Shown here: positions 5,809 to 48,513 of the stretch, one piece after another
Numbering within the stretch: the first letter of the stretch is position 1
Layout: every line of letters starts with the position of its first letter
Sequence record: MH285980
Length of the DNA stretch: 49,372 nucleotides
Strand: one strand, 5' to 3'
DNA from: Escherichia phage Eco_BIFF
Program-made: the position numbers and the translations under genes
The notes under the pieces: model-generated
Databases searched by the model: none
Told to the model about the DNA's origin: nothing
What the model saw: the letters and a program-made list of their open reading frames with translations, nothing else

Positions 5809-5828
5809 GCTTTAACAAAAAGTGCTAT
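5809..5828 (-). repeat. copy of the 20-bp element (inverted) between capsid-associated gene and major capsid gene
   Basis: Plus strand reads GCTTTAACAAAAAGTGCTAT, immediately before terminator 5836..5862; only a weak -10 (TATACA) at the cassette position. Confidence 0.4.
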
Positions 5829-5835
5829 TATTGAA

Positions 5836-5862
5836 GCCGTGAACATAATCACGGCTTTTTTA
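5836..5862 (+). terminator. intrinsic terminator
   Basis: GCCGTGA-acataa-TCACGGC then T6. Confidence 0.65.
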
Positions 5863-5882
5863 TTAACTACGGAGAAGTAATC

Positions 5883-6842
5883 ATGACTACTAAAAAATTT
5901 GATGAAGCAGATAAAAGCAATGTTGAAATGTATCTGATCCAGGCTGGCGTAAAACAGGATGCAGCCGCAACGATGGGTATCTGGACCGCTAAGGAACTAC
6001 ACCGCATCAAAAGCCAGTCCTATGAAGAAGACTACCCGGTAGGCTCCGCTCTACGCGTATTCCCGGTTACAACCGATCTATCTCCGACCGACAAGACGTT
6101 TGAATATATGACCTTTGATAAGGTTGGTACGGCTCAGATTATCGCTGACTACACCGATGACCTGCCGCTTGTTGATGCCCTGGGTACTTCTGAGTTTGGC
6201 AAGGTGTTCCGTCTGGGTAACGCGTATCTGATCTCAATCGACGAAATCAAAGCAGGTCAGGCAACTGGTCGCCCACTGTCAACCCGTAAGGCAAGTGCGT
6301 GCCAGTTGGCGCATGATCAGCTTGTTAACCGCCTGGTGTTCAAAGGTTCCGCGCCGCACAAGATTGTGTCCGTGTTCAATCATCCAAACATCACCAAAAT
6401 TACCTCCGGTAAGTGGATGGATGGCGCAACTCAGAAACCGGAAACGGCTGAAGCGGAATTGACTCAGGCGATCGAAACCATCGAGACGATTACTCGAGGC
6501 CAGCACCGAGCTACCAACATTCTGATCCCGCCGTCCATGCGTAAGGTGCTGGCGATTCGTATGCCTGAGACTACCATGTCTTATCTGGACTATTTCAAGT
6601 CTCAGAACTCCGGTATCGAAATCGACTCTATCGCAGAGCTTGAGGATATTGACGGCGCAGGCACTAAAGGCGTGCTGGTTTACGAAAAGAATCCGATGAA
6701 CATGTCCATCGAGATCCCGGAGGCATTTAACATGCTGCCAGCACAGCCGAAAGACCTGCACTTTAAAGTGCCTTGCACCTCTAAGTGTACTGGTCTTACA
6801 ATTTATCGCCCGATGACTATTGTCTTAATCACTGGCGTGTAA
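5883..6842 (+). CDS. major capsid protein (putative)
   Basis: 319-aa ORF with strong RBS (GGAGAAG), flanked by intrinsic terminators on both sides; call by position and size only. Confidence 0.55.
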   Translation: MTTKKFDEADKSNVEMYLIQAGVKQDAAATMGIWTAKELHRIKSQSYEEDYPVGSALRVFPVTTDLSPTDKTFEYMTFDKVGTAQIIADYTDDLPLVDALGTSEFGKVFRLGNAYLISIDEIKAGQATGRPLSTRKASACQLAHDQLVNRLVFKGSAPHKIVSVFNHPNITKITSGKWMDGATQKPETAEAELTQAIETIETITRGQHRATNILIPPSMRKVLAIRMPETTMSYLDYFKSQNSGIEIDSIAELEDIDGAGTKGVLVYEKNPMNMSIEIPEAFNMLPAQPKDLHFKVPCTSKCTGLTIYRPMTIVLITGV

Positions 6843-6849
6843 TATTATA

Positions 6850-6877
6850 GGGGCTAACTTAGTTAGTCCCTTTTTTA
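6850..6877 (+). terminator. intrinsic terminator after major capsid gene
   Basis: GGGGCTAAC...GTTAGTCCC then T6. Confidence 0.6.
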
Positions 6878-6891
6878 TTGGAGAAATCAAA

Positions 6892-7179
6892 ATGGCTAAA
6901 GAAAAAACTGTTGTTATCGTAAACGTTGGTGTAGCTCTTCAGATGTTCCGTCTTGAAGATGGTTCCTTTGCTAAAGTTCTTCCAGATGAAGAGGTCACGC
7001 TTCCGGCGTCCGTTCTTGATTTACCTGGCCTGCGTTGCTTAATTGCTCGCGAAGAAATCGAAGTTAAAGACGACAGTGCAACCAACCGCAAAATCCGCGC
7101 TGAAATGGCAAAGATCACGAAGCCAGATCCGTGGGATAGCAAAAGCGTTAAAGAGCTTGAGGACGGCGGCGAATATTAA
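6892..7179 (+). CDS. hypothetical virion protein
   Basis: 95-aa ORF with RBS GGAGAAA, between two terminators in the structural operon. Confidence 0.4.
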   Translation: MAKEKTVVIVNVGVALQMFRLEDGSFAKVLPDEEVTLPASVLDLPGLRCLIAREEIEVKDDSATNRKIRAEMAKITKPDPWDSKSVKELEDGGEY

Positions 7180-7185
7180 TCATCA

Positions 7186-7210
7186 AGGCGCTCATGTAGC
7201 GCCTTTTTTT
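7186..7210 (+). terminator. intrinsic terminator
   Basis: AGGCGCT-catgt-AGCGCCT then T7. Confidence 0.65.
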
Positions 7211-7223
7211 ATGGGGGTAAATT

Positions 7224-7634
7224 ATGAATCAAGAAACTTTAATTGCAGTTATTGAGCAAATGCGAAAGCTGGTTCCTGCACTTCGCAAGGTTCCAGACGA
7301 AACGCTTTATTCGTGGGTAGAAATGGCTGAGCTATTTGTATGCCAGAAGACCTTTAAAGATGCATACGTCAAGGCGCTTGCTCTTTATGCATTGCACCTT
7401 GCTTTCCTTGATGGGGCGCTAAAAGGTGAAGATGAGGATCTTGAATCGTACTCACGACGCGTTACGTCATTCTCCCTGAGCGGTGAATTTAGCCAGACTT
7501 TCGGAGAGGTGACGAAGAACCAGTCAGGAAACATGATGCTTTCGACGCCGTGGGGTAAGATGTTCGAACAGCTTAAGGCGCGACGACGTGGTCGATTCGC
7601 ATTAATGACAGGACACCGTGGAGGATGCCACTAA
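7224..7634 (+). CDS. head-tail connector/adaptor protein (putative)
   Basis: 136-aa ORF in head-tail joining region; position only. Confidence 0.35.
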   Translation: MNQETLIAVIEQMRKLVPALRKVPDETLYSWVEMAELFVCQKTFKDAYVKALALYALHLAFLDGALKGEDEDLESYSRRVTSFSLSGEFSQTFGEVTKNQSGNMMLSTPWGKMFEQLKARRRGRFALMTGHRGGCH

Positions 7635-8829: not shown

Positions 8830-8831
8830 TT

Positions 8832-9500: not shown

Positions 9501-9511
9501 ATACCATCCAT

Positions 9512-9540
9512 AGGGGGCTTGCGCCCCCTTATTCATTTCT
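9512..9540 (+). terminator. intrinsic terminator after major tail gene
   Basis: GGGGGC-ttgc-GCCCCC then T-rich tract. Confidence 0.55.
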
Positions 9541-9572
9541 GTAAAATCATCCTATCAACTTTATTCGATTAA

Positions 9573-9592
9573 CTTTTAACAAAAAGTGCTAT
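9573..9592 (-). repeat. copy of the 20-bp element (inverted) abutting the RBS of the G-like chaperone gene
   Basis: Plus strand reads CTTTTAACAAAAAGTGCTAT directly followed by CAACCAATCAGGAG and ATG 9614. Confidence 0.4.
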
Positions 9593-13530: not shown

Positions 13531-13554
13531 AGCCCGCCTTGCGCGGGTTTTTTT
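13531..13554 (+). terminator. intrinsic terminator followed by CTGTAGAAT -10-like box
   Basis: CCCGCCTTGCGCGGG then T7; same hairpin repeated at 15712. Confidence 0.6.
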
Positions 13555-13595
13555 GTAGCTGTAGAATGGTTGCAGGTAAACAAGAGGAAAAATCA

Positions 13596-15705: not shown

Positions 15706-15711
15706 AATTAA

Positions 15712-15734
15712 CCCGCCTTGCGCGGGTTTTTTTT
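15712..15734 (+). terminator. intrinsic terminator followed by CTGTATAAT -10-like box
   Basis: CCCGCCTTGCGCGGG then T8. Confidence 0.6.
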
Positions 15735-15782
15735 CGCCTGTATAATGAGTCCACCGATAAATAGCACAAAAAGGTAAACATC

Positions 15783-23296: not shown

Positions 23297-24796
23297 GGAC
23301 TTCAACATTTTTATCTCTTCTTGTAACTCTTCAACTTTCTTTATTGTATCCTGTAAAGCTCTCATAGTGTCAAGCAATAAAGGAGTTGTATCAAGCTCAA
23401 GCCTTTCAACTTTTGGCCCGTTTAGCTCGTGGCTCTCATACACCCTTCTCTTAACATATAGATTGTCGATCTCTTCTATCTCCTGAGCTATAACACCTCT
23501 CCTTACCCTTTCTTGCTCATCATCGTTAAATATAAAGTTCCTAAATCTCATTGATTTTATGTTGTTGTATGCAATGCTTGATTCATCATCCTTTATGCTG
23601 TGCTTTATATTTCTGTCAGATGCCGGAACCTGTTGGAAACTTCCAGCCCCTTGCGGTCCAGCGTAAGATATTTGCCCTGAAGCCATAAACCTGAAATGCA
23701 TTTGCAGACCAATATTGCCTGATCCATCCCTATCTTGAGTGCCTACTGATATTTGTGCCCTGGGCCATTCATTATTACCCGTAGTCATCATGCCAAATGC
23801 TACGCCGCCAACGTATCCCAGACCTCTGGTGTCGCACGATCCAGCAATAAGTGATTGATAGTTTTCAGCACCACTATCAGCGGTGTAAGCATTACCCTGG
23901 AAGCATGAAGCAGACCACATCTGGTTATAACTCATAGTTGTTTTCTTGCATAAAAACTGATTGGCTCTGAATCTATTGTTAGTCTCGAAGTAGTTTGCCC
24001 CCTCATAAAATAATAAAGTCCCAGCATAACCATTATCGCTATGTTCTTTTCTTACGTAAATCCCTGGCGAGGATATTCCATCAGGTGACATAATCATCAA
24101 TGATGACAACATGGTCTTACTACCCCAGTTAGAACCGTCCCATGAGTTCCTTCCTGCACCTATAGCACCCGTGGTGTTAATAGTAAGAAAGTTAACAGCA
24201 TCATTTTCACCTAACCCAATATTTTTTCTTGACTCTTTTTTATCCTCAAGACCAGCCAAGTTTCCATCCTTAGTTAAAAGATTTTCAGCATTGATGCTGT
24301 TAGCTGCGTCTTTAGCTTCTTGAGCGCTAACAGATGCCGCATCTTTTGATCTTACCGCATCGTCACGCGCTAATTCAGCCTGATTTTGCGCAGCTTGAGA
24401 ATCAGATTTCGCCTTATTCACATCAGCAACTATTTGCTCAAGTTTATTCATATCAAGCTGATTTATCAGATCTATAGCTGCCGCGATCTCAGTCTCTTTG
24501 CTTTGATAGTATCGAAGCGTCTCGGCAACGTTTTGAGCTAAGCCGTTAACAGTCAACGAATCGTTAAGCAAGATCACATACTTTCCGTCAGCTGCAGTCT
24601 GACCATCCGTAGAGATAGCCTTTAGCTCTGTGTCGCTCACAATATCGCTGATTACCGCCAGCTTAATTGGTTGCTCCAGGAATACGATAGTTGCACCGAC
24701 TCGAATCAGAGCAAGCTGATCTTTCCATTTTGTATCGGTTCCGTGAACCGTGCCGTCTGCATCCATTGATGCAGTACCGCGTCTATATAAAGCCAT
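23291..24796 (-). CDS. tail fibre with C-terminal intramolecular chaperone (peptidase S74-type) domain
   Basis: 501 aa; C-terminal ~120 aa resemble the self-cleaving chaperone domain of phage fibres; own sigma70-like promoter and terminator. Confidence 0.65.
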   Translation of the reverse strand: MALYRRGTASMDADGTVHGTDTKWKDQLALIRVGATIVFLEQPIKLAVISDIVSDTELKAISTDGQTAADGKYVILLNDSLTVNGLAQNVAETLRYYQSKETEIAAAIDLINQLDMNKLEQIVADVNKAKSDSQAAQNQAELARDDAVRSKDAASVSAQEAKDAANSINAENLLTKDGNLAGLEDKKESRKNIGLGENDAVNFLTINTTGAIGAGRNSWDGSNWGSKTMLSSLMIMSPDGISSPGIYVRKEHSDNGYAGTLLFYEGANYFETNNRFRANQFLCKKTTMSYNQMWSASCFQGNAYTADSGAENYQSLIAGSCDTRGLGYVGGVAFGMMTTGNNEWPRAQISVGTQDRDGSGNIGLQMHFRFMASGQISYAGPQGAGSFQQVPASDRNIKHSIKDDESSIAYNNIKSMRFRNFIFNDDEQERVRRGVIAQEIEEIDNLYVKRRVYESHELNGPKVERLELDTTPLLLDTMRALQDTIKKVEELQEEIKMLKSK

Positions 24797-24816
24797 AGTA
24801 TAAACTCCTTAGGTAA

Positions 24817-24836
24817 ATAGCACGAATTGCTAAGCT
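24817..24836 (+). repeat. copy of the 20-bp element in the leader of the minus-strand tail-fibre gene
   Basis: ATAGCACGAATTGCTAAGCT between tail-fibre promoter 24840..24868 and its RBS; no properly spaced -10 on the plus strand. Confidence 0.4.
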
Positions 24837-24839
24837 CAG

Positions 24840-24868
24840 ATTTTATCATTGTGATACCCGCCTTGCAA
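24840..24868 (-). promoter_or_regulatory. sigma70-type promoter for the tail-fibre gene
   Basis: Minus strand TTGCAA, 17-bp spacer, TAAAAT, immediately after the primase terminator. Confidence 0.45.
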
Positions 24869-24873
24869 TGGGC

Positions 24874-24897
24874 AATAAAAAACCGCCCGAAGGCGGT
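24874..24897 (-). terminator. intrinsic terminator after primase (minus strand)
   Basis: ACCGCC-cgaa-GGCGGT with T-run on the minus strand. Confidence 0.55.
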
Positions 24898-25832
24898 TAG
24901 AGTAGGTCACTTGCTGAGAATAATTTGGCTTGCATTCCTGAACGGTATCCTCCAGGATTCGTGATGATTATTTTTAATTGTCGGTCGTCTGCCATGTACA
25001 AGGTATCCTTGTCTGAAGGTTCGCACGCCACCCTTACTTCTCGATCACCTTTATACCTGTATGCAACCATTTCGAGATTTTCAGGGGTGAAGCAGGCCCA
25101 TACTTCTTGCTTTGTGTGAAATGCAATATGCTGAGCATCAATCCAGTTCAGACATAAGTAGATCGCCTTCTCTGTTTTACCAGTCACGGCAACCGAGCAA
25201 CTCGTGTATTTCTTCGCGTAAAATGACTCCCTTCCTTCCTCATCAATAATCAAAATATTGCAAAACTCGTCATCAAGCCCATCCTCATGCACAAGTTGAC
25301 ACGGGATAGTGTGAAATACGCTCTCTCCGCCATCTTCTCGACGTTTTACGCCAACGTCGAATGATTCAGTGGGTAGTGACTCAAAAATACTTAGGGGTGT
25401 GTTTACGCGCTTCTCTGTACGCTCCATAACTTTCATTACTGCTTCATGGTCTGCCATCATGACGTTGACACCTGATACCGGAGTTCGGCGCGCTTTCTTG
25501 TTCGCCTTGACGATATATTCCTGCGGAACCTTTCCGAGAAATCTTCCCAGGATGTTTATACATTCGCTGTACGGCATACCAGTTAATTTCATCAACCAAC
25601 CAATCCCGGAGTCGTTACCGCAGGAGTTGCAGATCGCGCCGCCGTCGCCAGGAGTATTCAGATTGTCAGTCCAGCGAAAACGGTCTTTGCCGCCGCAGTT
25701 AGGGCAAGGTTGGTGCTTCTTGTTGAAAACCCCGTTAGGTAATCCGCATACGGACTGGAACGCCTCACGCCATAACCCCTTCATATACGGCAATACGTCC
25801 TCTTTCTGAAACATCATAAATTCTTCGTTCAC
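24897..25832 (-). CDS. DNA primase (N-terminal zinc-ribbon)
   Basis: GTG start with GGAG RBS; CPNCGGKDRFRW...CNSCG matches primase-helicase zinc-binding motif. Confidence 0.6.
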   Translation of the reverse strand: MNEEFMMFQKEDVLPYMKGLWREAFQSVCGLPNGVFNKKHQPCPNCGGKDRFRWTDNLNTPGDGGAICNSCGNDSGIGWLMKLTGMPYSECINILGRFLGKVPQEYIVKANKKARRTPVSGVNVMMADHEAVMKVMERTEKRVNTPLSIFESLPTESFDVGVKRREDGGESVFHTIPCQLVHEDGLDDEFCNILIIDEEGRESFYAKKYTSCSVAVTGKTEKAIYLCLNWIDAQHIAFHTKQEVWACFTPENLEMVAYRYKGDREVRVACEPSDKDTLYMADDRQLKIIITNPGGYRSGMQAKLFSASDLL

Positions 25833-25865
25833 TTCCAGATCTCCAAATAAAAAACGCGTAGAAGG

Positions 25866-25909
25866 ATGTTAACCCGCTACGCGTCGATTGTTTTAACTAA
25901 AAATGCTAT
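25866..25909 (-). promoter_or_regulatory. promoter cassette: 20-bp element + 18-bp spacer + -10 TAACAT; upstream of primase
   Basis: Element ATAGCATTTTTAGTTAAAAC on minus strand; -10 sits in loop of hairpin followed by T-run; 27 nt before GTG 25832. Confidence 0.45.
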
Positions 25910-26345: not shown

Positions 26346-26357
26346 CTTAATTCTCCT

Positions 26358-26401
26358 GTAGCACTTTTTGCTAAAAACGTTTACTGTATGTCGTGTATTA
26401 T
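26358..26401 (+). promoter_or_regulatory. promoter cassette (-10 TATTAT); upstream of helicase
   Basis: GTAGCACTTTTTGCTAAAAA + 18 bp + TATTAT; 32 nt before helicase start. Confidence 0.5.
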
Positions 26402-26439
26402 AGCGTAAACGATACAACGATTCAAAGGATTAAATAGCT

Positions 26440-28458
26440 GTGACAATTAACATCAAGAAGCAAATCGCATTACTTGGCGAGGACTATATAAAACGCACTC
26501 AAGAACGATTTACTGTCGGTGAGGTCGTTCCTTATCCGTATCAGGTTGTTGCTTATGCCGAGATCGCAAAACGCCTGTCAAATTACGAGCATCCATTCTT
26601 TGTTAAAGCGTCAGTATCTGCGGGTAAAACAATCATATTCGCTATGGTGGCAAAGCAGTGTCAAAAAATGGGACTGAAAATGCTTGTGCTTGCGCGACAG
26701 GGTGAGATTGTCGATCAGGATAGTGAGGAGATTGACAACTTCGGGGTAACGAACTCCATATTCTCAGCATCGCTTGGAATCAAGTCCTGCTACTTCCCGA
26801 TCGTGGTTGGCTCAGAGGGTACTGTTGCAAATGGCCTCGACAATGAGTTAGCTGATTTCGTACCGCATGTAATTGGGATCGACGAATGTCACCAGGTGGA
26901 TTGGGAAGACCTTGCGCAAGCCATCGAAGGCAAGGAAACGATGGAGCAGATGAGGGGCGAGAAAGGGAAGGTTATCATGGACGGAGATATCCCCATGATT
27001 GGTAATGATGGAAAACCTTTACTTGGAACCAAGCGCAGTCAGTACACGATCGTAATCATGGAAATGATGCGGCGCTGTAAAAAGGTTCACGGTCACGATC
27101 TCAGAATATTTGGTATGACCGGATCTGAATTTCGGGGTGTAGTTCCTATTCTGGTAGAGAATCCTAAAGAGCTGGGATTCTGGCGTGAGCGAGTAACTGA
27201 TATCGACACAAACTATCTGATTGAGTTCGGATCTGTTGTGCCGACGATATTCGGTTCAACTGACGGCGTACACTACGATCTGGATAAGTTCAAGGCATCA
27301 AGCGAGGACGGCGTACAGGACTTTACAGAGAAAGATATGAAGGCAATGGAAGATGAGATCCTTCATGATAAATCTCTTACTCAGCGAATCATGCAAATGG
27401 TCGCCAAAAAGGCTGAAGAGCGTAACGCGGTTCTGATTACATGCGCCTGGGAACGCCACTGCAAAGAGGCGGCGGCAGCACTTCCTCCGGGAAGTACATA
27501 TGCAATTATTACTGGCGACACAGACAACAAAGCGCGCAAGAAGATTCTTGACGATGTGAGGGCTGGGAAAATTAAATACACCTTTCAGGTAATGGCGCTC
27601 ACTACTGGTGTTAACGTTCCAAATTGGGATTTCAGTGTCATACTCCGCAAGATAGGATCTCTCACTCTGTTGATTCAGCTTTTGGGTAGGGGTATGCGGC
27701 TGCTTAAATCATGGCAGGTTGCTGAAGGAATGGTTAAGCAAGACCATCTGGTATGGGATTTCGCTGGCACTATGGATGAGTTGGGCCAGCTTTATTTCGA
27801 TCCGATACTTGAGCAGGCGCAATTCCAGAAGCGTTTTGAAAACGGCAAAGACCCGAAAACATGCCCGAAATGCGGTTGCGTAAATAGCTTCTATGCTCGA
27901 CGATGCGTTAATGTCATTGATGGTGAACGTTGCGATTATTTCTGGACTTCTCAGATTTGCGAGGACCAGGTTGATGAACGTACCGGGAAAATCATTGTTA
28001 AAGGATGTGGTGCAGAGAATGACGTTGTTGCGCGAGTCTGTCGTTGTTGTGATGTTTCGCTTGTCGATCCTAACCTGAAGTTATCAGGTAAGGCGTACAC
28101 TAAGAATGACTGGTATGAAGTAAAGAATTTTGAGGTTACGCTAACCAAAAACCAGAAAGGCATAATATACAAATACACGCTGATTAACGACGATGGTGAT
28201 GAGTTCAAGGCGTATGAAAAATTCTTCCCCGAGTCTGACTCTAAGATTTGCGGTACGCTATGGAAAACTAAAGGTGTACTTCCTCATGTGTCAGATCCTA
28301 AAATGCGACGCTACTTTATCGGAATGAAGAACGCCATCAAGATTTTGCAATACTCACATCATATTGCTCACCCGGTGCGCGTAACTCATCGTCGCAACCA
28401 GAAGAAAGAAGATATTATCTCACGTAAAGACTTCGGTATGGAGGATATCCCGGAATGA
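26440..28458 (+). CDS. ATP-dependent DNA helicase (SF2) with C-terminal zinc ribbons
   Basis: Walker A SAGKT, DEAH-like GIDECHQ, CPKCG...C and CGAEN...CRCC ribbons; GTG start. Confidence 0.75.
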   Translation: MTINIKKQIALLGEDYIKRTQERFTVGEVVPYPYQVVAYAEIAKRLSNYEHPFFVKASVSAGKTIIFAMVAKQCQKMGLKMLVLARQGEIVDQDSEEIDNFGVTNSIFSASLGIKSCYFPIVVGSEGTVANGLDNELADFVPHVIGIDECHQVDWEDLAQAIEGKETMEQMRGEKGKVIMDGDIPMIGNDGKPLLGTKRSQYTIVIMEMMRRCKKVHGHDLRIFGMTGSEFRGVVPILVENPKELGFWRERVTDIDTNYLIEFGSVVPTIFGSTDGVHYDLDKFKASSEDGVQDFTEKDMKAMEDEILHDKSLTQRIMQMVAKKAEERNAVLITCAWERHCKEAAAALPPGSTYAIITGDTDNKARKKILDDVRAGKIKYTFQVMALTTGVNVPNWDFSVILRKIGSLTLLIQLLGRGMRLLKSWQVAEGMVKQDHLVWDFAGTMDELGQLYFDPILEQAQFQKRFENGKDPKTCPKCGCVNSFYARRCVNVIDGERCDYFWTSQICEDQVDERTGKIIVKGCGAENDVVARVCRCCDVSLVDPNLKLSGKAYTKNDWYEVKNFEVTLTKNQKGIIYKYTLINDDGDEFKAYEKFFPESDSKICGTLWKTKGVLPHVSDPKMRRYFIGMKNAIKILQYSHHIAHPVRVTHRRNQKKEDIISRKDFGMEDIPE

Positions 28459-28871
28459 TTACAGACAAAGGTGATTATTTAGAATTTTACGAGCGAGATC
28501 CAAGCGATACTCGAAAGGAGGATGCTCATCAAGTTGATTGCGTGTCATGGCTGAAATACAATTTCCCTCACCTTCTATTTTGGCACACTGTCAATGAAGG
28601 TGAAAAAACAATCACATCGGCACTAAGGGATGAACAAGCTGGATTACTTAAAGGCGTGTCAGACTTCGTTATCCTGATTGGTGTCAACTCACGATACCCG
28701 TTTGCAGCAATAGAACTCAAGCGGGTTAATAAGTCAGGCAAAGGAAAGGCGTCACCAGTCAGCGACAAGCAAAGGGAATTTCTCCGAAAGGTCCGGGAGC
28801 GCGGTGGATTCTCTGCCGTCGCATACGGATTCGGGCAATTCAAGATCGCAATTTACGAAATGATGAAATAG
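28455..28871 (+). CDS. VRR-NUC domain nuclease
   Basis: 138 aa with D...ELK PD-(D/E)XK-type motif (SDFVILIG...AIELK); overlaps helicase stop. Confidence 0.6.
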   Translation: MITDKGDYLEFYERDPSDTRKEDAHQVDCVSWLKYNFPHLLFWHTVNEGEKTITSALRDEQAGLLKGVSDFVILIGVNSRYPFAAIELKRVNKSGKGKASPVSDKQREFLRKVRERGGFSAVAYGFGQFKIAIYEMMK

Positions 28872-28911
28872 CACTTTTTGTTAAAACTGCCGGAATGGAA
28901 TCTGGCATAAT
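28868..28911 (+). promoter_or_regulatory. promoter cassette (-10 TGGCATAAT)
   Basis: ATAGCACTTTTTGTTAAAAC + 18 bp + CATAAT with TG extension; stop TAG of 28455..28871 lies inside the element. Confidence 0.5.
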
Positions 28912-28991
28912 ATTCTCATTGAAACGTTACGGATGTGTAAGAATGAACACTATATATTTTGTTTGCAATGTAATTTGCGAAGAGTCTAAAG

Positions 28992-29141
28992 ATGAACATT
29001 TTTTCAACTGGGGATAGTTACGAGGTTTTAGAGAAGAATGATAATTACGTAATGATTGATAATAATGGAGTTGAACGTGATGTTTGTATGGTTAATGGCG
29101 GCATTATAGTATCAAGCAATTCAAAATTCACTGAGTTATAA
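28992..29141 (+). CDS. small hypothetical protein (49 aa)
   Basis: Short AT-rich ORF between promoter cassette 28868..28911 and dam; weak RBS. Confidence 0.25.
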   Translation: MNIFSTGDSYEVLEKNDNYVMIDNNGVERDVCMVNGGIIVSSNSKFTEL

Positions 29142-29152
29142 GGATTTAAACA

Positions 29153-29866
29153 ATGAAAGACTTCAACGATATAGAAACCATCGACTTTGCAGAGACTGGC
29201 TGCTCATTCACTCGCGAAGCAATAGCGTCAGGCTGTTATTATCAGGCATTGAAAACGCCAACCTGCAAAGAGATTTCAGGGCGTCGATACAAGGGAACAA
29301 ATACCCCTGACGCTGTTCGTGATTTATGGTCAACTCCACGCGAGGTTATCGCATACCTTGAGGGGCGCTACGGAAAATATGACCTCGACGCTGCGGCAAG
29401 TGAAGAAAATAAAGTTTGCGATAAGTTTTATTCTCAGGAAACAAACTGCTTAAAACGTTGGTGGGGTAAAAATAAGCATGTATGGTCAAATCCTCCTTAT
29501 AGTCGACCTGATATATTCGTCAAGAAGGCGATCGAGCAAATGGAGCACAACAACCAGATTGATATTCTGTTGCCTGCCGATAATTCTACAGCGTGGTTTA
29601 CTGAGGCGCGACAGCACGCGGCTGAGATTATCTGGATTGAAGCTGATTTGACGGAGGATATCGACGGGAACGAGTACGCCCGATCCGGTCGCCTGGCGTT
29701 CATATCAGGTGAAACCGGGAAGGCCGTTGATGGTAATAACAAAGGTTCGGTAATTTTCATTATGCGCGAACTGAAAGAGGGTGAGGTTCAACAGACTCAC
29801 TATATCCCAATCACAAGCATTTGCCCTTCGGTTAAAAACAAGCGCGCAAAAGTAAGGAAAGTATGA
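29153..29866 (+). CDS. dam: DNA N6-adenine methyltransferase (Dam-type)
   Basis: 237 aa; SAM-binding DLDAAAS and catalytic NPPY motifs; length matches the recalled T1 Dam. Confidence 0.8.
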   Translation: MKDFNDIETIDFAETGCSFTREAIASGCYYQALKTPTCKEISGRRYKGTNTPDAVRDLWSTPREVIAYLEGRYGKYDLDAAASEENKVCDKFYSQETNCLKRWWGKNKHVWSNPPYSRPDIFVKKAIEQMEHNNQIDILLPADNSTAWFTEARQHAAEIIWIEADLTEDIDGNEYARSGRLAFISGETGKAVDGNNKGSVIFIMRELKEGEVQQTHYIPITSICPSVKNKRAKVRKV

Positions 29867-30114
29867 TGAACGAGAAAATGATTCCTGTTAAGTTAACTGA
29901 TCAAGGTTTATGGCTACTTTATCGAGCTACGTGCTGCGAAATTATGGAGCGAAACGGATTGACTCAGGATGTTATTGGTTGCGATCTGTGGGATTTCACT
30001 AGTTCTCTTGATATGTCTTTCGGTGAGATAAAAAATGAACATATCGAGAATTGGCCTTCAATTATCCAGAAAGACGTAGAGGAACTTAAAGCAGATACGA
30101 TCGTTCAGCACTAA
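29863..30114 (+). CDS. hypothetical protein
   Basis: 83-aa ORF coupled to dam stop; RBS AGGAAAG. Confidence 0.45.
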   Translation: MMNEKMIPVKLTDQGLWLLYRATCCEIMERNGLTQDVIGCDLWDFTSSLDMSFGEIKNEHIENWPSIIQKDVEELKADTIVQH

Positions 30115-30950: not shown

Positions 30951-32102
30951 ATGTCACAAGCTAAAATCACCACCGAGCAACTTATTGAAGAGCGCATGAG
31001 CGGCCTAACACTTCGCGAGATCGCGGAAAAATACGGCATGCACATTCGCACTGTTGAAGCGCGTCACGCCAAGCTGGCAAAAGAAGGTCATTTTCACGGT
31101 AACGAGCATGTTGCTAAAAACGTTCCCGAGGGATTCATGGTAAAAGGCACGTCGACGATGATTCGAGGTGATGGGACCGAGGTAGTGCGCTGGGTAAAGA
31201 CCGATCAGGACCGTGAGAAGATTGCGGCAATGATGGAAGCGGCTCGCATTGCATTCTGTGAAGACCTGCCGCGAGCAAATCCAACCAAGCTACTAACCTC
31301 GCAAGGGCTTACGACAGCTATGGGTAAGCTGGCACTCTATCCGGTATTCGATCTTCATATTGGCGCGCTTGCTCATAAGCATGAGTGCGGAGAGAACTAC
31401 TCTACCGATGTAGCGGAAAAAGTGCTGAGTGACTTCTTTAATTACGCGATCGATATTGCTCCGAACGCAGAGAAAGCTGTTCTGTTAATCGGCGGTGACT
31501 TCCTTCACTCTGACGGCCTTGATGCAGTTACCCCGGCAAGTGGTCACGTTCTTGATCAGGATTCACGATACGCAAAATTAGTGCATGTTGCGATTCGTTC
31601 GGTACGCCGAGCCATCGACAAAATGCTTATGAAACACAAAGAAGTCGAGGTCCAGGTTATCGAAGGGAACCACGATCAGTCTGGGATGATTTGGCTGAGA
31701 GCTGCAATGTCGGCATATTATGAAGACGAGCCGCGAGTATTCGTTGACGTTAGTCCTATGATTCTGCATAAGACTCGTTGGGGAAATACCTTGTTGGGAT
31801 ACACTCACGGTCACACTATGAAAAAGGCAGACACGCGACTTGCAGCAATGGCGGCAGATTTTCGATCAGACTTCGGCGAGAGCAAGTATGTGTATACTCA
31901 TAGTGGTCACTGGCATCACCAGACAATCACTGAGCACTCGCTTGGTATTGATGAGGTTCACGGTCAGTTAGGCGCGAAAGACGCATACGCAGCGCGCGGA
32001 GGGTGGCGCTCATATCGCCAGGCGGCTGTAATTGTTTACGATAAGCAGTTTGGGGAAATAGGTCGCTTCATCTATCGTCCAGAAATGACAGGATCGCACT
32101 AA
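30951..32102 (+). CDS. HTH-fused calcineurin-like metallophosphoesterase
   Basis: N-terminal HTH-like LTLREIAEKYGMHIRTVE; C-terminal motifs DLHIG, GGDFLH, GNHD, GHTH, GHWH. Confidence 0.6.
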   Translation: MSQAKITTEQLIEERMSGLTLREIAEKYGMHIRTVEARHAKLAKEGHFHGNEHVAKNVPEGFMVKGTSTMIRGDGTEVVRWVKTDQDREKIAAMMEAARIAFCEDLPRANPTKLLTSQGLTTAMGKLALYPVFDLHIGALAHKHECGENYSTDVAEKVLSDFFNYAIDIAPNAEKAVLLIGGDFLHSDGLDAVTPASGHVLDQDSRYAKLVHVAIRSVRRAIDKMLMKHKEVEVQVIEGNHDQSGMIWLRAAMSAYYEDEPRVFVDVSPMILHKTRWGNTLLGYTHGHTMKKADTRLAAMAADFRSDFGESKYVYTHSGHWHHQTITEHSLGIDEVHGQLGAKDAYAARGGWRSYRQAAVIVYDKQFGEIGRFIYRPEMTGSH

Positions 32103-37437: not shown

Positions 37438-37470
37438 TTTTAATTCCTTTGTTTTGTTTGGTGTGTGAGT

Positions 37471-37515
37471 AATATACCTTACTCACTATTTATTGTCTTT
37501 AGCAATTAGTGCTAT
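37471..37515 (-). promoter_or_regulatory. promoter cassette (-10 TATATT, 19-bp spacer)
   Basis: Minus-strand ATAGCACTAATTGCTAAAGA; hairpin GTGAGTAA/TTACTCAC; 27 nt before ATG 37437. Confidence 0.45.
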
Positions 37516-39004: not shown

Positions 39005-39048
39005 ATTATGCCAAATCGCACCGATCGAGTTTTAACAAAAAGTGCTAT
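39005..39048 (-). promoter_or_regulatory. promoter cassette (-10 TGGCATAAT)
   Basis: Minus-strand ATAGCACTTTTTGTTAAAAC + 18 bp + CATAAT; stop TAA of 39032..39736 lies inside; 32 nt before ATG 38966. Confidence 0.5.
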
Positions 39049-39736
39049 TTGCGATCGCTTTGAAAAATCCACGCGGCGACAGGGATCGTATCAGCTTAGT
39101 TTTGGCAGACTTGCCGCCCAGCTTGTTTTGCTGTGCAGAGTACCCGTCAGGCAGGTTTACAGGTTTTCTCTCCGGCATAACGAAGTCGTCAGAGGTCCAC
39201 AGACAAGTCTTCTTCGGGTAAGCATCGCGCGGCGCGATATACATCGGGAACCAGGGATGCGCGTCATTCTCAGGAAGATAGCCGCCATACTCCCAGGGAT
39301 TGAAGGAGTGATTTGGTTTTCTCCATGCAGATGACAGGACGCTCACCGGATTCTCAATTATGTAAGTCACGCCCATGCTATCGCCAATGTTCGCGGCAAT
39401 ACGGGCAGTAGCGACAGCTTTCTCCTGGAATAGCGGATCACGTTCACGCTTGCTGGCAAAATGGCGAGCACCACTAACAGCAAGGTCAGTGCATGGATGG
39501 AAGGCCATAATAAAATCCGGTTTGTCATACACACCCGCGATCGTATCACGTTCGAACTTCTCATCAATGAAGACGTTCACATACTCAATGTTCGGATGCT
39601 CTACCCTGGCGTTGTACTTTGCGTAATCTCCGTGATCGGCTCCGTCAAAGTTGAAGCACATCACCTTATGACCTTGCTTTGCCAGTTCATGGCCAGCAAG
39701 ACCGGAACCGTCGAATAGTGACCAAATTAATTTCAT
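39032..39736 (-). CDS. compact DNA (cytosine-5) methyltransferase-like protein
   Basis: C5-MTase-like motifs in order: FDGSGLAG, PC (HPCTDLAVSGA), ENP, C-terminal AIANS; only 234 aa, little room for a target-recognition domain. Confidence 0.45.
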   Translation of the reverse strand: MKLIWSLFDGSGLAGHELAKQGHKVMCFNFDGADHGDYAKYNARVEHPNIEYVNVFIDEKFERDTIAGVYDKPDFIMAFHPCTDLAVSGARHFASKRERDPLFQEKAVATARIAANIGDSMGVTYIIENPVSVLSSAWRKPNHSFNPWEYGGYLPENDAHPWFPMYIAPRDAYPKKTCLWTSDDFVMPERKPVNLPDGYSAQQNKLGGKSAKTKLIRSLSPRGFFKAIANSTFC

Positions 39737-39770: not shown

Positions 39771-39814
39771 ACTATACCCTGTCAACCTGGTCGAGTCGTT
39801 AGCAAAAATGCTAT
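39771..39814 (-). promoter_or_regulatory. promoter cassette (-10 TATAGT); upstream of C5-MTase-like gene
   Basis: Minus-strand ATAGCATTTTTGCTAAC (N4 variant); motif-to-hexamer distance conserved; 28 nt before ATG 39736. Confidence 0.45.
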
Positions 39815-39999
39815 TCCAATAATTGCTCATTATTCCATCAATACTGGAATAGGTGGAATAATTTTGATTGTTATTGATTGCGAATGATGAAACGTGATTA
39901 TTGCATGGTGTGCAACAGTTGGTTGATTTGTTGCTGAGATTGCAATGATTGTGAGAGGGAGGATTTAGTGTTGCCCTGTTCGCCTGGTAGTCATCTCCA

Positions 40000-40019
40000 T
40001 TTTTAGCAAAAAGTGCTAT
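40000..40019 (-). repeat. copy of the 20-bp element without a properly spaced -10
   Basis: Minus-strand ATAGCACTTTTTGCTAAAAA at the edge of the AT-rich divergent region; hexamer at the cassette position is GAACAG. Confidence 0.35.
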
Positions 40020-40023
40020 CGAT

Positions 40024-40420
40024 TACACTTTAACTTGTCACGACTGTAATATTTGTCTAGAATCGCACTTGTGACAAAAATACACACTGTGACGCCTCAC
40101 AATATACATATAGATATATGTATATATATAATATATATAGTGTTTTTTTTATTTATATATAGATAATTATATTGTAATAGTTGTGTATAGCTGTCTTACA
40201 TTGTCTAGCGTACTGTTGGCATATTTCTATCTGCATGTTTATATATACAGTACTTTTTTGAGAGCCATATATTTCTATAGTGGCTATAGACAGCTAGACA
40301 AATGTTACACGGCTTAAAATTGGCTCGCAGGCATTGACAGCTCTACATCGCGATGTCACAATGGCAATTGTTGACACATTATGACACCATTTACACACGA
40401 ATAGACAAAGAGGATATATT
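40024..40420. promoter_or_regulatory. AT-rich divergent control region with TGTGACA/TGTCACA/CTAGACA repeats
   Basis: Repeated TGTGACA, TGTCACA, TGTCTAGA words and (TA)n tracts between leftward and rightward early clusters; TTGACA boxes at 40334 and 40371. Confidence 0.5.
40334..40362 (+). promoter_or_regulatory. sigma70-type promoter for the first rightward early gene
   Basis: TTGACA, 17-bp spacer, CACAAT; second TTGACA at 40371..40376. Confidence 0.45.
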
Positions 40421-41228: not shown

Positions 41229-41259
41229 AACCCCATCGACAACGAACGAGGATACAAAC

Positions 41260-42475: not shown

Positions 42476-42515
42476 CACGAATTGCTAAACCTTCCGCAAG
42501 GCCATTTGATATAGT
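42472..42515 (+). promoter_or_regulatory. promoter cassette (-10 TGATATAGT)
   Basis: ATAGCACGAATTGCTAAACC + 18 bp + TATAGT in loop of hairpin AAGGCCA/TGGCCTT. Confidence 0.55.
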
Positions 42516-42578
42516 GGCCTTATTGAAGAAAAGCAACCAATCAGGCTGGATGCCGCATAATTTAATTAGGTTTTATCT

Positions 42579-44838: not shown

Positions 44839-44877
44839 GCCCTTCGTTGAGTTAAGCAACCAATCAGAGGAATCACT

Positions 44878-46092: not shown

Positions 46093-46094
46093 AC

Positions 46095-46667: not shown

Positions 46668-46707
46668 CACGAATTGCTAAAACGTCGGTGGGGTGATTTG
46701 ATATAGT
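46664..46707 (+). promoter_or_regulatory. promoter cassette (-10 TGATATAGT)
   Basis: ATAGCACGAATTGCTAAAAC + 18 bp + TATAGT; 26 nt before ATG 46740. Confidence 0.55.
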
Positions 46708-46739
46708 TACCTCATCGACAACGAAGAGAGAAAATCGAA

Positions 46740-46949: not shown

Positions 46950-47289
46950 TCACGATTAACCTGTAAGATAAACAAGCGCGTGAAATACTAGACACTATCG
47001 GCGAACAGCTTCACGTAAAAGGCGCTGCCGCCGAACTTCTTAACCAGATCGAAAGGCAGCTTACCCCGGCATCAACGAATCAATCTGAGTTTGCAACCTG
47101 GAAGAGCGAGCGAATCCTGCCAAATATCATCAAGGCATGGAAGCGCAAGCATAAAAAAGAAATAAATGTTGAGGATTTATTTACCGATGAATTAAGTCCT
47201 TCAAAGGTTGCTCAATACCAGTTGCGATACATGGAATCAGTTTGCAATCAGGTTTTAGGTGTTAATTTTTCATTTGGGAGAGGTAAATA
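46946..47289 (+). pseudogene. hypothetical gene interrupted by in-frame TAA at 46964..46966
   Basis: ATG 46946 overlaps upstream stop; TAA at codon 7 followed by ~107 stop-free codons in the same frame with no internal start codon; 3' end overlaps next ATG. Confidence 0.35.
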
Positions 47290-47520
47290 ATGTTCGGTTT
47301 AAGTGAAGCGGAATGGAACGTGGTAAAGCGCGCGGCGAAGGAATTAAACAAATTCGTCAGCGGCATGAAGAAAGAAGATCGTAAAAACGACAAGATCATG
47401 ATTGATGTAATCTCAGCTCACCACAAAAAGGTCGAGTTACTAATCGACCGATACAAATTTGTCTGGACTGCCGGGTACATTGCCGGGCGCGTAGGTAACA
47501 AAGAAGGGGATTACGAATAA
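47290..47520 (+). CDS. hypothetical early protein
   Basis: 76-aa ORF with RBS GGGAGAGG. Confidence 0.45.
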   Translation: MFGLSEAEWNVVKRAAKELNKFVSGMKKEDRKNDKIMIDVISAHHKKVELLIDRYKFVWTAGYIAGRVGNKEGDYE

Positions 47521-47723
47521 TGGCTAATTTACCGAAGAAAGGCGATCAGGTTCGATGTGTCACATCACGAAATGGCGATGCTTTCTCAGCCGGGTGCGCG
47601 TACGACGTTGAAAAAGTCAGTAAGTCAAAGAGGCTTGTATTCGTGTACGGCGATGATGGAAACCTGCATGAGATTGATTACCCGCAGGATATGACTAAGG
47701 GACAATTCGAAATTAATGATTGA
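47520..47723 (+). CDS. hypothetical early protein
   Basis: 67-aa ORF overlapping upstream stop; its stop TGA lies in the -35 TTGACC of the next promoter. Confidence 0.45.
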   Translation: MANLPKKGDQVRCVTSRNGDAFSAGCAYDVEKVSKSKRLVFVYGDDGNLHEIDYPQDMTKGQFEIND

Positions 47724-47749
47724 CCTAAGTCCCTGAGCGGTGATAGTAT
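47720..47749 (+). promoter_or_regulatory. sigma70-type promoter with extended -10
   Basis: TTGACC, 18-bp spacer, TGaTAGTAT; followed by ~130-nt structured leader before ATG 47888. Confidence 0.55.
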
Positions 47750-47887
47750 TAATCCCGTAGACAGACGAGGCGCAATTAGGCGCAACGCGTGAGACGATTC
47801 TCACTCTTCCAGCTAACAAGCTCGGTTGCATAGTGGTTAAGCAACGCCGCAGACCCGTAAGCGGCAACAATTCAAGAGGATTGCATA

Positions 47888-48049
47888 ATGCAAAACACTA
47901 AAGACGAATCAATCAAAATTGAAATTAAAGTAACTCGCAACGGTGAAACCACTCGTTATAAAAAACGATTAAATCCTGGCGAGGCTGTTATTGGTCGCAT
48001 TGCTGGCGTTATGATTAAGGCGCAGGAAGATGAAGCGATTCAAAGTTAA
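47888..48049 (+). CDS. small hypothetical protein (53 aa)
   Basis: RBS AAGAGG 8 nt before ATG 47888; behind sigma70 promoter 47720..47749 and a ~130-nt leader. Confidence 0.4.
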   Translation: MQNTKDESIKIEIKVTRNGETTRYKKRLNPGEAVIGRIAGVMIKAQEDEAIQS

Positions 48050-48215
48050 ATTAATCATTCGAAAGATGGGAATGTTTTGCCAGTCGTGCAAACAATCTTT
48101 CGAAACAGAATTATCTGCAACCAGTCAGGCAGAAGCCATCACGAAAGCGAAGAAACTTTCCGATGCTAATCTTGACACTCACAAAATAAACATTGAATTA
48201 ATCAAGGAGATTTAA
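48030..48215 (+). CDS. hypothetical protein
   Basis: 61-aa ORF overlapping previous gene; start uncertain. Confidence 0.3.
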   Translation: MKRFKVKLIIRKMGMFCQSCKQSFETELSATSQAEAITKAKKLSDANLDTHKINIELIKEI

Positions 48216-48216
48216 C

Positions 48217-48443
48217 ATGACCATTTTTTATTGATTATCGCTGGTATCATTATTTTTGGTGCTGGTTTGCTTGCTGGATTCGCACTTGTTGCGGCAGCGA
48301 TTGCGATGGACGCGAAGGATAAAACTGGTGTATGGCTGACCTACTCACCTAAGAAGGACCAATGGGAAATGACTGGCGACCTTGCTCACTGCTACTCTAA
48401 AGCTCAGACCCACCCTAAAGGCATTAAACGACGATTATCGTGA
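48217..48443 (+). CDS. small membrane protein; needs a +1 frame change at T6 run 48224..48229 (alternative TTG start 48231)
   Basis: ATG 48217 has ideal RBS AAGGAG 7 nt upstream but hits a stop after 5 codons; one extra T would give MTIFLLIIAGIIIFGAG... with an N-terminal TMD. Confidence 0.35.
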
Positions 48444-48452
48444 TAAATACTA

Positions 48453-48476
48453 ACCCGCTTCGGCGGGTTTTTTTAT
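48453..48476 (+). terminator. intrinsic terminator before terminase promoter region
   Basis: CCCGCTTCGGCGGG then T7. Confidence 0.6.
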
Positions 48477-48493
48477 GTCTGCAATATGGTAAA

Positions 48494-48513
48494 ATAGCAC
48501 TAAATGTTAAACA
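48494..48513 (+). repeat. copy of the 20-bp element overlapping the -10/leader of the terminase small-subunit gene
   Basis: ATAGCACTAAATGTTAAACA overlaps extended -10-like TGGTAAAAT (48487..48495) and is followed at once by RBS AAGAGGA. Confidence 0.4.

Follow-up and report, generated by a model that had tools for sequence, protein, structure and literature searches.

Escherichia phage Eco_BIFF, a T1-like phage (sequence record MH285980), carries a 20-bp element that recurs both upstream of early promoters and at the promoters of virion genes, in either orientation. This raises the question of which protein reads the element and whether one type of site can serve activation at some promoters and repression at others. 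The first-pass annotation had listed six copies outside the early promoter cassettes and had proposed for them a single factor, acting as an activator near -42 and as a repressor or roadblock over late promoters, or else an RNA-level signal. We addressed this question in the window, that is, the whole 49,372-nucleotide stretch of DNA, and in related genomes.

Results

The repeated element matches the E. coli marbox

The marbox is an asymmetric 20-bp site bound by monomers of the AraC-family proteins MarA, SoxS and Rob (RamA in Klebsiella and Salmonella), of which MarA, SoxS and Rob are stress and antibiotic-resistance regulators of E. coli. All six listed copies of the phage element are present at the coordinates given, and the element is strongly non-random: with up to three mismatches allowed, ATAGCACTTTTTGTTAAA has 14 matches in the window where 0.07 are expected, and a position weight matrix scan returned 21 sites of at least 20 bits and none in shuffled sequence. 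The published marbox consensus GCAHWWWWTGYYAAA (PMC6900184) has 12 perfect matches in the window against 0.05 expected, and 8 further sites differ from it at one position; four of the six listed copies match perfectly and two (15764 and 24820) carry two mismatches. The consensus 15-mer (GCACTAATTGCTAAA / gcactaattgctaaa) is identical to three window sites, G4 of the element is invariant, and its mirror position is C or T, as in the YY of the marbox. In E. coli, ChIP-seq and EMSA show MarA binding to identical 15-mer cores (PMC5684230). In sequence, the repeated element thus matches the E. coli marbox, both to GCAHWWWWTGYYAAA and to gcactaattgctaaa, and its copies follow the same dependence of orientation on function, being forward in the class II and reverse in the class I arrangement described below.

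The regulators themselves would be supplied by the host. A tblastn search for an AraC-family or MarA-like protein encoded by the phage gave no match, and the 62 early and middle ORFs gave no significant Pfam match (E<0.006) to HTH_18/AraC; a cognate phage-encoded activator, as for the MotA-type box of T4, was not found, the sole helix-turn-helix (HTH) candidate being Cro-like. [quoted passage not shown] No report of marbox wiring of phage promoters was found in the searchable literature.

Early cassettes are of class II and one further copy is of class I

Approximately 20 copies belong to predicted class II promoters, in which a forward box at -50 to -31 is followed, without a -35, by a -10 that is often extended, and these cassettes would drive early, replication and lysis genes. 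In class II marbox promoters (PMC12052159), which lack a -35 (PMC10268841), the box lies over the -35 position with its centre at -36 to -55, and in micF it is separated from the -10 by 18 bp. The phage cassettes have this spacing and no recognisable -35: in all 20 the box is forward relative to its own -10, which lies 19 to 21 nt past the 15-mer (exactly 20 nt, or 18 bp from the 20-mer, in 17/20), and the box centre falls near -40.5.

The copy at the edge of the AT-rich region, listed among the extra copies, does have a promoter context, with a plus-strand -35 following it after 15 bp:

40000..40019, minus strand: class I-type marbox ATAGCACTTTTTGCTAAAAA, matching the consensus at 15/15 positions, centred near -60.5 of a rightward promoter
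40035..40063, plus strand: rightward promoter TTGTCA-17-TAGAAT, scoring 10/12 in the promoter scan and served by this box

The order of reverse box, 15 bp, a good -35, 17 bp and -10 is that of the class I promoter of marRAB in the K-12 genome, and the promoter is directed through the AT-rich region towards the ORF at 40421. At the same place, T1 has TTGATT-17-TATGAT at an equal distance, so that the spacing is kept and the hexamers differ. Its geometry places this copy (40002) among class I sites of the activator type.

Five copies lie on late promoters

The remaining five copies sit on late promoters that are otherwise self-sufficient as sigma70 promoters. With start sites predicted throughout as -10 plus 7 nt, a box falls within -30 to +40 in 5/6 recognisable late promoters, where the estimated chance per promoter of a site with at most two mismatches is approximately 0.02. 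Loss of the late copies from relatives would have spoken against a regulatory role; instead, their position and orientation are kept across distinct relatives in the Drexlerviridae (capsid, 60/69; tail fibre, 24/40; J-like, 44/59; G-like, 28/67; terS, 15/69) while the flanking sequences diverge, and at each late locus the orientation of the box is constant. In repression of the pbpG type, the box lies over the core promoter in either orientation with its centre at -35 to +25; the predicted centres at the capsid (approximately -19.5), terS (+1.5), fibre (+7) and J-like (+18) promoters lie in this range, and that of the G-like box (+29.5) lies just beyond it. Weberviruses keep the early cassettes and are devoid of four of the five late copies, and late repression would therefore not be essential to the family.

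At the capsid and terminase small subunit (terS) genes, the box lies within the promoter itself:

5809..5828, minus strand: inverted marbox ATAGCACTTTTTGTTAAAGC, 15/15 to the consensus, filling the spacer of the major-capsid promoter
5804..5831, plus strand: sigma70 promoter of the capsid gene (5883), with -35 TTGACG (5804-5809), a 16-bp spacer and extended -10 TGcTATTAT (hexamer 5826-5831), scoring 10/12 plus TG in the promoter scan
48494..48513, plus strand: forward marbox ATAGCACTAAATGTTAAACA, 15/15 to the consensus, over the -10 and start region of the terS promoter
48487..48495, plus strand: terS extended -10 TGgTAAAAT, aligning with TGgTATACT / TGgTATAAT of relatives and following a terminator at 48453-48470

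The capsid box, which is separated from the capsid gene by a terminator hairpin, scores at least 17 bits and is always on the inverted strand in 60/69 distinct relatives, with at most one mismatch in 57/69, down to approximately 55% capsid identity; across the family the -35 and -10 keep their positions, and the end of the marbox, read in reverse, forms TGCTAT of the -10. The first-pass annotation was right that this copy has no cassette-type -10 of its own, the only candidate at that spacing on its own strand (TATACA) being conserved in 1/61, and had overlooked the sense promoter whose spacer this box fills. The terS box overlaps the last two bases of TGgTAAAAT and spans approximately -9 to +12, upstream of a gene start that is most likely at 48528, as judged from the T1 annotation and alignment. 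Its 15-mer core is identical to the E. coli pheP site gcactaaatgttaaa, for which MarA binding is graded +++ (PMC5684230). Among the 69 distinct relatives, this box is present in 15, all of them T1-likes except for one relative with 74% TerS identity.

At the tail-fibre and J-like genes, the box lies at the start site or in the leader:

24817..24836, plus strand: marbox ATAGCACGAATTGCTAAGCT, 20.5 bits, inverted relative to the tail-fibre gene (minus strand, ATG at 24796)
24840..24868, minus strand: tail-fibre promoter with -35 TTGCAA (24868-24863), 17 bp and extended -10 TGaTAAAAT (hexamer 24845-24840), following a terminator at 24898-24881
15761..15780, plus strand: forward, degenerate marbox ATAGCACAAAAAGGTAAACA in the J-like leader, with 2 mismatches and 12.7 bits, at approximately +9 to +28 (ATG at 15783)
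15741..15746, plus strand: -10 TATAAT (TGTATAAT) of the J-like promoter, following a terminator at 15710-15728

The fibre box spans approximately -3 to +17 of the promoter TTGCAA-17-TGaTAAAAT, whose extended -10 is conserved in relatives. An inverted box follows the -10 by 2 to 8 nt in 24/40 distinct primase-fibre junctions, or in 24/29 of those with the fibre gene after primase, down to 43% primase identity, and Rtp has an identical 18-mer. The J-like copy, previously described as a partial ATAGCAC, is a full 20-mer. Alone it is marginal, each shuffle yielding 0.85 hits that score 12 bits or more; relatives nevertheless retain the site with a better match, and 44/59 distinct relatives have a forward box scoring 11 bits or more. 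As the box overlaps the ribosome-binding site and contains the Shine-Dalgarno (SD) AAGG, part of its conservation may be translational; Tempevirinae have a perfect box and a separate GGAGG at this locus.

At the G-like gene, a tape-measure chaperone, the arrangement differs from that described before:

9573..9592, minus strand: marbox, 15/15 to the consensus, of a class II cassette pointing antisense, upstream of the G-like gene (9614)
9549..9554, minus strand: antisense -10 TAGGAT (with TGa), 18 bp from the box, with a predicted start near 9542
9540..9547, plus strand: sense late promoter TGTAAAAT (hexamer 9542-9547), following a terminator at 9512-9529, with a predicted start near 9554

This copy had been said to lack an -10 at 18-bp spacing, which is incorrect, since TGaTAGGAT lies at exactly that spacing on its own strand. 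The inverted box occurs in 28/67 distinct relatives, and TAnnnT follows it at exactly +18 in 28/28, in the form of 11 different hexamers and with TG in 25/28. The sense and antisense -10s are one base apart, the box lies at approximately +20 to +39 of the predicted sense start, and TGTAAAAT, TGTAGAAT or TGTACAAT is kept at the place of the sense -10 in relatives. The G-like copy would probably function through antisense transcription and not as a simple operator.

Discussion

The proposal of one factor that activates from approximately -41 and represses or blocks late promoters fits all that was found, including the marbox identity, with two amendments: the copy at 40002 is of the activator type, and that at the G-like gene probably acts through an antisense promoter. 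We consider it reasonably probable that host MarA, SoxS or Rob activate the early promoters and hold down the late ones through marboxes. A host marbox protein, present from injection onward, would activate the early cassettes and simultaneously repress virion genes by (i) steric occlusion of the capsid promoter from within its spacer, as in E. coli pbpG; (ii) sitting over the start regions of the terS, tail-fibre and J-like promoters; and (iii) drawing RNA polymerase to the convergent promoter at the G-like gene, where the sense and antisense -10s adjoin and polymerases at the two promoters would exclude each other. Phage gene timing would then appear to be wired into a host stress regulon, with approximately 20 early promoters turned on and five virion-gene promoters blocked.

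More speculatively, late genes could be relieved when the regulator becomes limiting, whether by titration on approximately 26 sites per replicating genome, by Lon-mediated decay of MarA and SoxS after host shut-off, or by a phage anti-activator. That a constitutive host repressor needs such a relief step for late expression counts against our preferred explanation. T1 grows well on ordinary K-12, a host with little MarA and SoxS in which most Rob is sequestered unless an inducer is present (PMC2787020, PMC10268841). To our knowledge, classical resistance screens yield fhuA/tonB and not rob; on both counts, any dependence of the phage on marbox regulators is probably modulatory or redundant.

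It is possible, although we think it unlikely, that the physiological ligand is instead a phage DNA-binding protein that activates at -41 and represses late, the resemblance to the marbox being convergent or incidental. The candidate would be the Cro-like HTH protein encoded at 25893-26345 (minus strand; homologue of T1 gp23), a conserved "transcriptional regulator" whose gene sits between two cassettes and whose product has a weak P22_Cro/YdaS HTH match. A phage factor would provide a natural temporal switch, and the GCTAA variants of the box hold the inverted repeat TAGCA-N5-TGCTA, whose 10-bp centre spacing suits a dimer. However, this palindrome is broken in the commonest box (TGTTA) and is present, in the same partial form, in the E. 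coli consensus itself, while the invariant G4 facing C or T is exactly the marbox YY, and orientation is strictly fixed at every locus, as for an asymmetric monomer. Moreover, constitutive late promoters with a phage-made repressor would express late genes first, in the wrong order, and since MarA experimentally binds identical cores, host proteins would bind regardless.

Rather less probable is that the late copies act positively, by promoter opening, or through antisense RNAs on capsid and tail mRNAs, and not as operators. MarA can activate from within a core promoter, as at the sigma28 promoter flgBP2 (PMC12781870), and because of this example the sign of the effect of the box at the capsid promoter, whose TGcTAT is supplied by the box end, is not certain. 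Yet flgBP2 needs help because sigma28 melts DNA poorly, whereas the capsid, terS and fibre promoters have a good -10 or extended -10, the first and last of them also a -35, and the nearest architecture, pbpG, is repressed. An antisense role could be argued from the G-like cassette, which is conserved as a complete promoter; it accords poorly with the capsid copy, with its non-conserved antisense -10, and with the fibre and J-like boxes, which have no -10 at cassette spacing.

We regard as improbable the idea that the late copies are non-regulatory by-products, that is, cassette relics moved by repeat recombination and kept as A/T-rich leader, SD or -10 sequence. The J-like copy is indeed degenerate and doubles as SD, the terS copy is lineage-specific, some relatives retain only a plain -10 into which the fibre box has collapsed, and weberviruses manage without most late copies. 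Nevertheless, promoter spacers normally vary freely, and the near-perfect conservation of the capsid box departs from this; orientation is fixed at five loci despite diverging flanks, and the GCAC half is the best conserved part, although at the J-like and fibre sites it contributes to neither an SD nor a -10. Finally, an RNA-level processing or translation signal, prompted by three copies in 5' leaders adjoining ribosome-binding sites, is highly improbable, as the leader copies occur in both orientations and the RNAs would carry complementary sequences, transcription from the approximately 20 cassettes and from the class I promoter would begin downstream of the box, and no hairpin was found associated with the late copies.

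Comparison with known systems

The reading in which host regulators act on both promoter sets can be set beside several known systems. In the K-12 genome, micF consists of ACAGCACTGAATGTCAAAAC followed by 18 bp and TAGAAT, and the phage cassettes share this layout without a usable -35, the core sequences being near-identical (micF ACAGCACTGAATGTCAAAAC, phage ATAGCACTAAATGTTAAACA). Unlike micF, the phage has approximately 20 such promoters in 49 kb, and in most of them the -10 is extended, a hairpin lies within or near the spacer, and the leader CATCGAAACGA is conserved. The box at 40000-40019 is identical to that of E. coli marRAB at 15/20 positions; it differs in being a single instance that adjoins the AT-rich region at the T1 genome end, where no MarR-type operator is evident.

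Besides class I and class II activation, marbox regulators are capable of repression, at pbpG with a box in the promoter spacer; rob, purA and hdeA are also repressed by MarA, SoxS or Rob. The capsid box, which fills a 16-bp spacer, has its closest architectural match in pbpG, with the difference that its end forms part of the extended -10. The other late copies lie at a start site or in a leader, and one forms a convergent promoter, layouts not described for the host regulon in the literature examined.

As a phage-wide set of promoters that combine a good -10 with an activator box in place of the -35, the cassettes resemble the middle promoters of phage T4, where a MotA box is centred at -30 and AsiA is the co-activator. 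Both T4 proteins are phage-encoded, whereas in Eco_BIFF no phage activator of the matching family was found and the box is the host's own. The G-like pair (9542-9547, plus strand, against 9549-9554, minus strand) would be comparable to pR and pL of coliphage 186, face-to-face promoters at which firing or occupancy of one depresses the other. With -10s one base apart, the G-like promoters would exclude each other at the binding step rather than by collision, and the aggressor promoter would here depend on an activator.

Census and identity of the box

The window is a complete 49,372-bp contig of a T1-like siphophage (IMG/VR entry IMGVR_UViG_2974585480_000001), collinear with T1 and 90-95% identical to Shigella and E. 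coli Tunavirus genomes across 24000-30000. Structural genes extend from terS (~48.5 kb, wrapping round) to ~24.8 kb, and the remainder is devoted to replication, lysis, and many small early genes. The 18-mer ATAGCACTTTTTGTTAAA is matched 14 times in the window with at most 3 mismatches, compared with 0.07 expected, and a position weight matrix (PWM) derived from 20 promoter-associated copies scored 25 sites at 12 bits or more, where shuffles gave 0.85, and 21 at 20 bits or more, where shuffles gave 0. Two of the tested sites are among these 20 copies, and for those we therefore relied on a published, independent consensus.

This consensus, 5'-GCAHWWWWTGYYAAA-3', describes the marbox, to which the AraC-family regulators MarA, SoxS, and Rob of E. 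coli bind (PMC6900184); it has 12 perfect matches in the window, where 0.05 would be expected, and a further 8 with one mismatch. The consensus marbox given by Sharma et al., gcactaattgctaaa (PMC5684230), occurs as an exact 15-mer at 30108 (+), 37498 (-), and 44798 (+). The MarA site at E. coli pheP, gcactaaatgttaaa, for which strong (+++) binding was reported (PMC5684230), is the exact core (48497-48511) of the copy at the terminase small subunit gene terS, and the same copy differs at 3/18 positions from the micF marbox that was crystallised with Rob (PMC8279559). Two other readings of the repeat were rejected: TTGTTA/TTGCTA within the box cannot serve as a -35, because the 22-bp spacer to the -10 is too long for sigma70, and the palindrome or dimer reading, TAGCA-N5-TGCTA, was set aside, as the commonest variant breaks the palindrome, the degeneracy follows the YY of the marbox, and the host consensus is equally part-symmetric. 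Sequence and comparison establish what the site is, where it is placed (class I, class II, and core-promoter positions), and that these placements are conserved.

Relatives' loci were gathered by alignment-based scans; a protein-only scan with TerS gave mostly close relatives. Exact box matches in IMG/VR fall almost solely on contigs of 41-53 kb. Two of them (L438/L439 and L468/L469; 41.8 and 41.5 kb), with 3-4 exact matches each, are below the typical Drexlerviridae genome size and could be incomplete genomes or belong to a neighbouring group of phages sharing the box.

Class II and class I placements

Twenty copies are followed by a -10 hexamer, in many cases with a TGn extension, 19-21 nt past the 15-mer; in 17/20 of these cassettes the distance is exactly 20 nt, equivalent to an 18-bp gap behind the 20-bp box. 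The cassette boxes are forward, at about -50 to -31, without a -35, as in class II promoters, where a forward box, centred anywhere from -36 to -55, lies over the -35 (PMC12052159) and a -35 is absent (PMC10268841). The layout is identical to that of E. coli micF, which reads ACAGCACTGAATGTCAAAAC, 18 bp, TAGAAT, and +1 at micF in the K-12 genome, and such cassettes are likewise found in T1, Rtp, KP36, and IsaakIselin, phages of four genera or subfamilies.

Several features accompany the cassettes. In about 15 of the 20, a strong hairpin either makes up the 18-bp spacer or holds the -10 in its loop (z -2 to -5.7 versus shuffles), for example:

46684-46727 (+), cassette with hairpin
42492-42535 (+), cassette with hairpin
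37452-37495 (-), cassette with hairpin
25846-25889 (-), cassette with hairpin

Several of these hairpins are annotated in T1 as rho-independent terminators, and they may serve to attenuate transcription or to insulate one transcription unit from the next. The initial transcribed sequence CAT(C/T)GA(A/C)A(A/C)GA, found 5-6 nt past the -10 of most cassettes (e.g., 28918-28928 and 41234-41245), is conserved among this phage, T1, Rtp, KP36, and IsaakIselin. The cassette of the leftward ORF 39032-39736 has a box, 39798-39817 (-), that is one base short (AATAGCATTTTTGCTAAC) and is followed by GTATAGT; for want of that base it was missed by the consensus and PWM scans.

Beyond the early cassettes, the first-pass annotation had listed six copies, all of which we confirmed at the positions it gave:

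5809-5828 (-), copy upstream of the capsid gene
9573-9592 (-), copy at the G-like gene
15761-15780 (+), copy at the J-like gene (first listed as 15761-15767)
24817-24836, copy inverted relative to the minus-strand tail-fibre gene
40000-40019 (-), copy at the edge of the AT-rich region
48494-48513 (+), copy at terS

The copy at the AT-rich edge does have a promoter context: it is followed, 15 bp downstream on the plus strand, by TTGTCA-17 bp-TAGAAT. This is the class I geometry of E. coli marRAB (GATTTAGCAAAACGTGGCAT, 15 bp, TTGACT, 17 bp, TATTAT in the K-12 genome), with 15/20 box positions identical. The T1 equivalent retains the spacing despite other hexamers (TTGATT/TATGAT), which looks like the pattern of a real promoter under selection. 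The adjoining 40100-40300 is highly AT-rich, with TATATA-type repeats, lies between divergent early operons, and corresponds to about positions 200-300 of the T1 record, within the T1 terminal repeat. We regard this stretch as a candidate pac or origin region, which the class I promoter would transcribe.

Boxes at late promoters

The late promoters of the window run from a terminator hairpin through a T-run to a -10 that fits TGTAWAAT or TGnTAnAAT, and 5/6 recognisable examples carry a box, the sole boxless one (terminator plus TGTAGAAT, ~13551-13570) being ahead of the L-like minor tail gene. Weberviruses lack most of the late copies. IsaakIselin (2102-2160) has a late-region placement absent from the window: a perfect forward box right after terL, with TGTACAAT and then a terminator hairpin between it and the portal gene.

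The 16-bp spacer of a plus-strand promoter, TTGACG-16-TGcTATTAT (5804-5831), is wholly taken up by the capsid box, whose reversed end (GTGCTAT) also provides the TG and bases 1-3 of the -10. Among 69 distinct capsid upstream regions of relatives, the inverted box scores at least 17 bits in 60 and has at most one mismatch to the consensus in 57; it is conserved down to ~55% capsid identity, and the -35 and -10 likewise stay in position. The minus-strand hexamer at cassette spacing (TATACA in the window) conforms to TAnnnT in only 1/61 relatives, and an antisense promoter is therefore not the conserved function of this copy.

The G-like copy had been described as lacking an 18-bp-spaced -10, which is wrong, as it is part of a full minus-strand cassette (box, 18 bp, TGaTAGGAT). 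Its antisense -10 is kept in all 28 distinct relatives that have the box, through 11 different hexamers, and the TG in 25 of them. A single base separates this -10 (9549-9554) from the late -10 on the sense strand, TAAAAT (9542-9547). Because the two promoters converge and overlap, a polymerase bound at one must exclude a polymerase at the other. The proposal that both inverted late copies are antisense promoters thus held for the G-like copy (28/28) and failed for the capsid copy (1/61). A spacer hairpin of the early-cassette type is absent at both.

The remaining copies lie at or beyond the start. The J-like copy, previously reported as a partial ATAGCAC, is a full-length, degenerate forward box at about +9 to +28 of the leader, with the Shine-Dalgarno (SD) sequence inside it. 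Its PWM score of 12.7 bits is marginal taken alone; relatives have A[CT]AGCACAAAAGGTTAAAAC, with one mismatch, the Tempevirinae leader has a perfect box plus a separate GGAGG, and 44/59 distinct junctions score at least 11 bits, all forward. The fibre box occupies about -3 to +17 of TTGCAA-17-TGaTAAAAT. An inverted box 2-8 nt past the extended -10 is present in 24/40 distinct primase-fibre junctions, or 24/29 of those with the gene order kept, down to 43% primase identity. In some relatives (junctions L042, L060, L061, and L064), the fibre-leader box is short of ~3 nt, giving TTAACAAATGCTATTAT, and the extended -10 is now formed by the former box end, which looks like a snapshot of box loss.

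As the first-pass annotation had it, the terS box overlaps the end of an extended -10, TGgTAAAAT, at about -9 to +12. CAATAT was dropped as the terS -10, since the relatives' alignment points to TGgTAAAAT. The box is limited here to T1-likes and one relative at 74% TerS identity (15/69); other Drexlerviridae have TGgTATACT or TGtTATAAT without a box. The mechanical terS ORF begins at 48504, inside the box, and the terS start is most likely 48528 (ATGAGTGAACC), after the RBS AGAGGA, by the T1 annotation and a five-genome alignment (invariant M9 S10).

Discussion

The main alternative concerning the ligand is that the box is bound by the phage's own Cro-like HTH protein (25893-26345, -), the sole HTH candidate in the phage. 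A tblastn search for MarA, SoxS, and Rob homologues in the phage, with approximate query sequences, found none, and Pfam listed no HTH_18/AraC family among 62 early/middle ORFs (three unlisted families were worse than E = 0.0057). A sigma70 region 4 match given by the KP36 annotator for the T1 gp16 homologue was not reproduced by Pfam on the window ORF 30951-32099. On the host side, 15-mer cores identical to those of the phage have been bound experimentally by MarA (PMC5684230), and Rob has a higher marbox affinity and binds more promiscuously (PMC10268841); therefore, on this analysis, MarA, SoxS, and Rob should bind the phage boxes whatever else does.

We infer that the host regulators would activate the cassettes and repress the late promoters. 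Repression could proceed by three routes: (i) occlusion, of the kind known from pbpG, a promoter whose spacer the box overlaps and which all three regulators repress; (ii) blocking of the start region by the bound regulator; and (iii) at the G-like gene, a competing antisense promoter that the regulator would drive. Relief of the late promoters might, speculatively, come from titration or decay of the regulator. One caveat to this mechanism is that MarA can also activate from within a core promoter, as it does at flgBP2 with sigma28. The sparse late copies of Weberviruses and the J-like box over the SD are further caveats, as is the growth of T1 on unstressed K-12.

Taken as a whole, and with somewhat less than even confidence, we propose that the transcription programme of Drexlerviridae (T1 etc.) is written in the Mar/Sox/Rob grammar of the host: class I and class II marboxes would switch on the early genes and those for replication and lysis, virion genes would be restrained by marboxes in core promoters and by an antisense promoter that a marbox drives, and the early-to-late switch and burst would be set by the level of host stress regulators, with titration by replicating phage DNA as a possible timer.

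These regulators respond to antibiotics, salicylate, oxidants, and bile. [quoted passage not shown] The phage would also offer ~25 graded marboxes, covering all known architectures, as a compact natural collection; a rare case of a late operon silenced by an antisense promoter under a host activator; a model, open to test, in which titration sets a developmental switch in a phage; and ready predictions on exact start sites, point mutations, and a host triple mutant.

T1 is a classic phage, and to our knowledge its transcriptional control has never been worked out. A comparative paper on T1-like phages gives only 5-10 generic sigma70 promoters, from neural-net prediction. Full-text literature searches returned nothing joining T1-like phages to the marbox, MarA, or SoxS, or quoting the phage box; an earlier mention in the genome papers of T1 (Roberts 2004) or Rtp (Wietzorrek 2006) is possible. 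The site type and the three modes are known in the host, and what appears to be undescribed is a virulent phage family organised around them.
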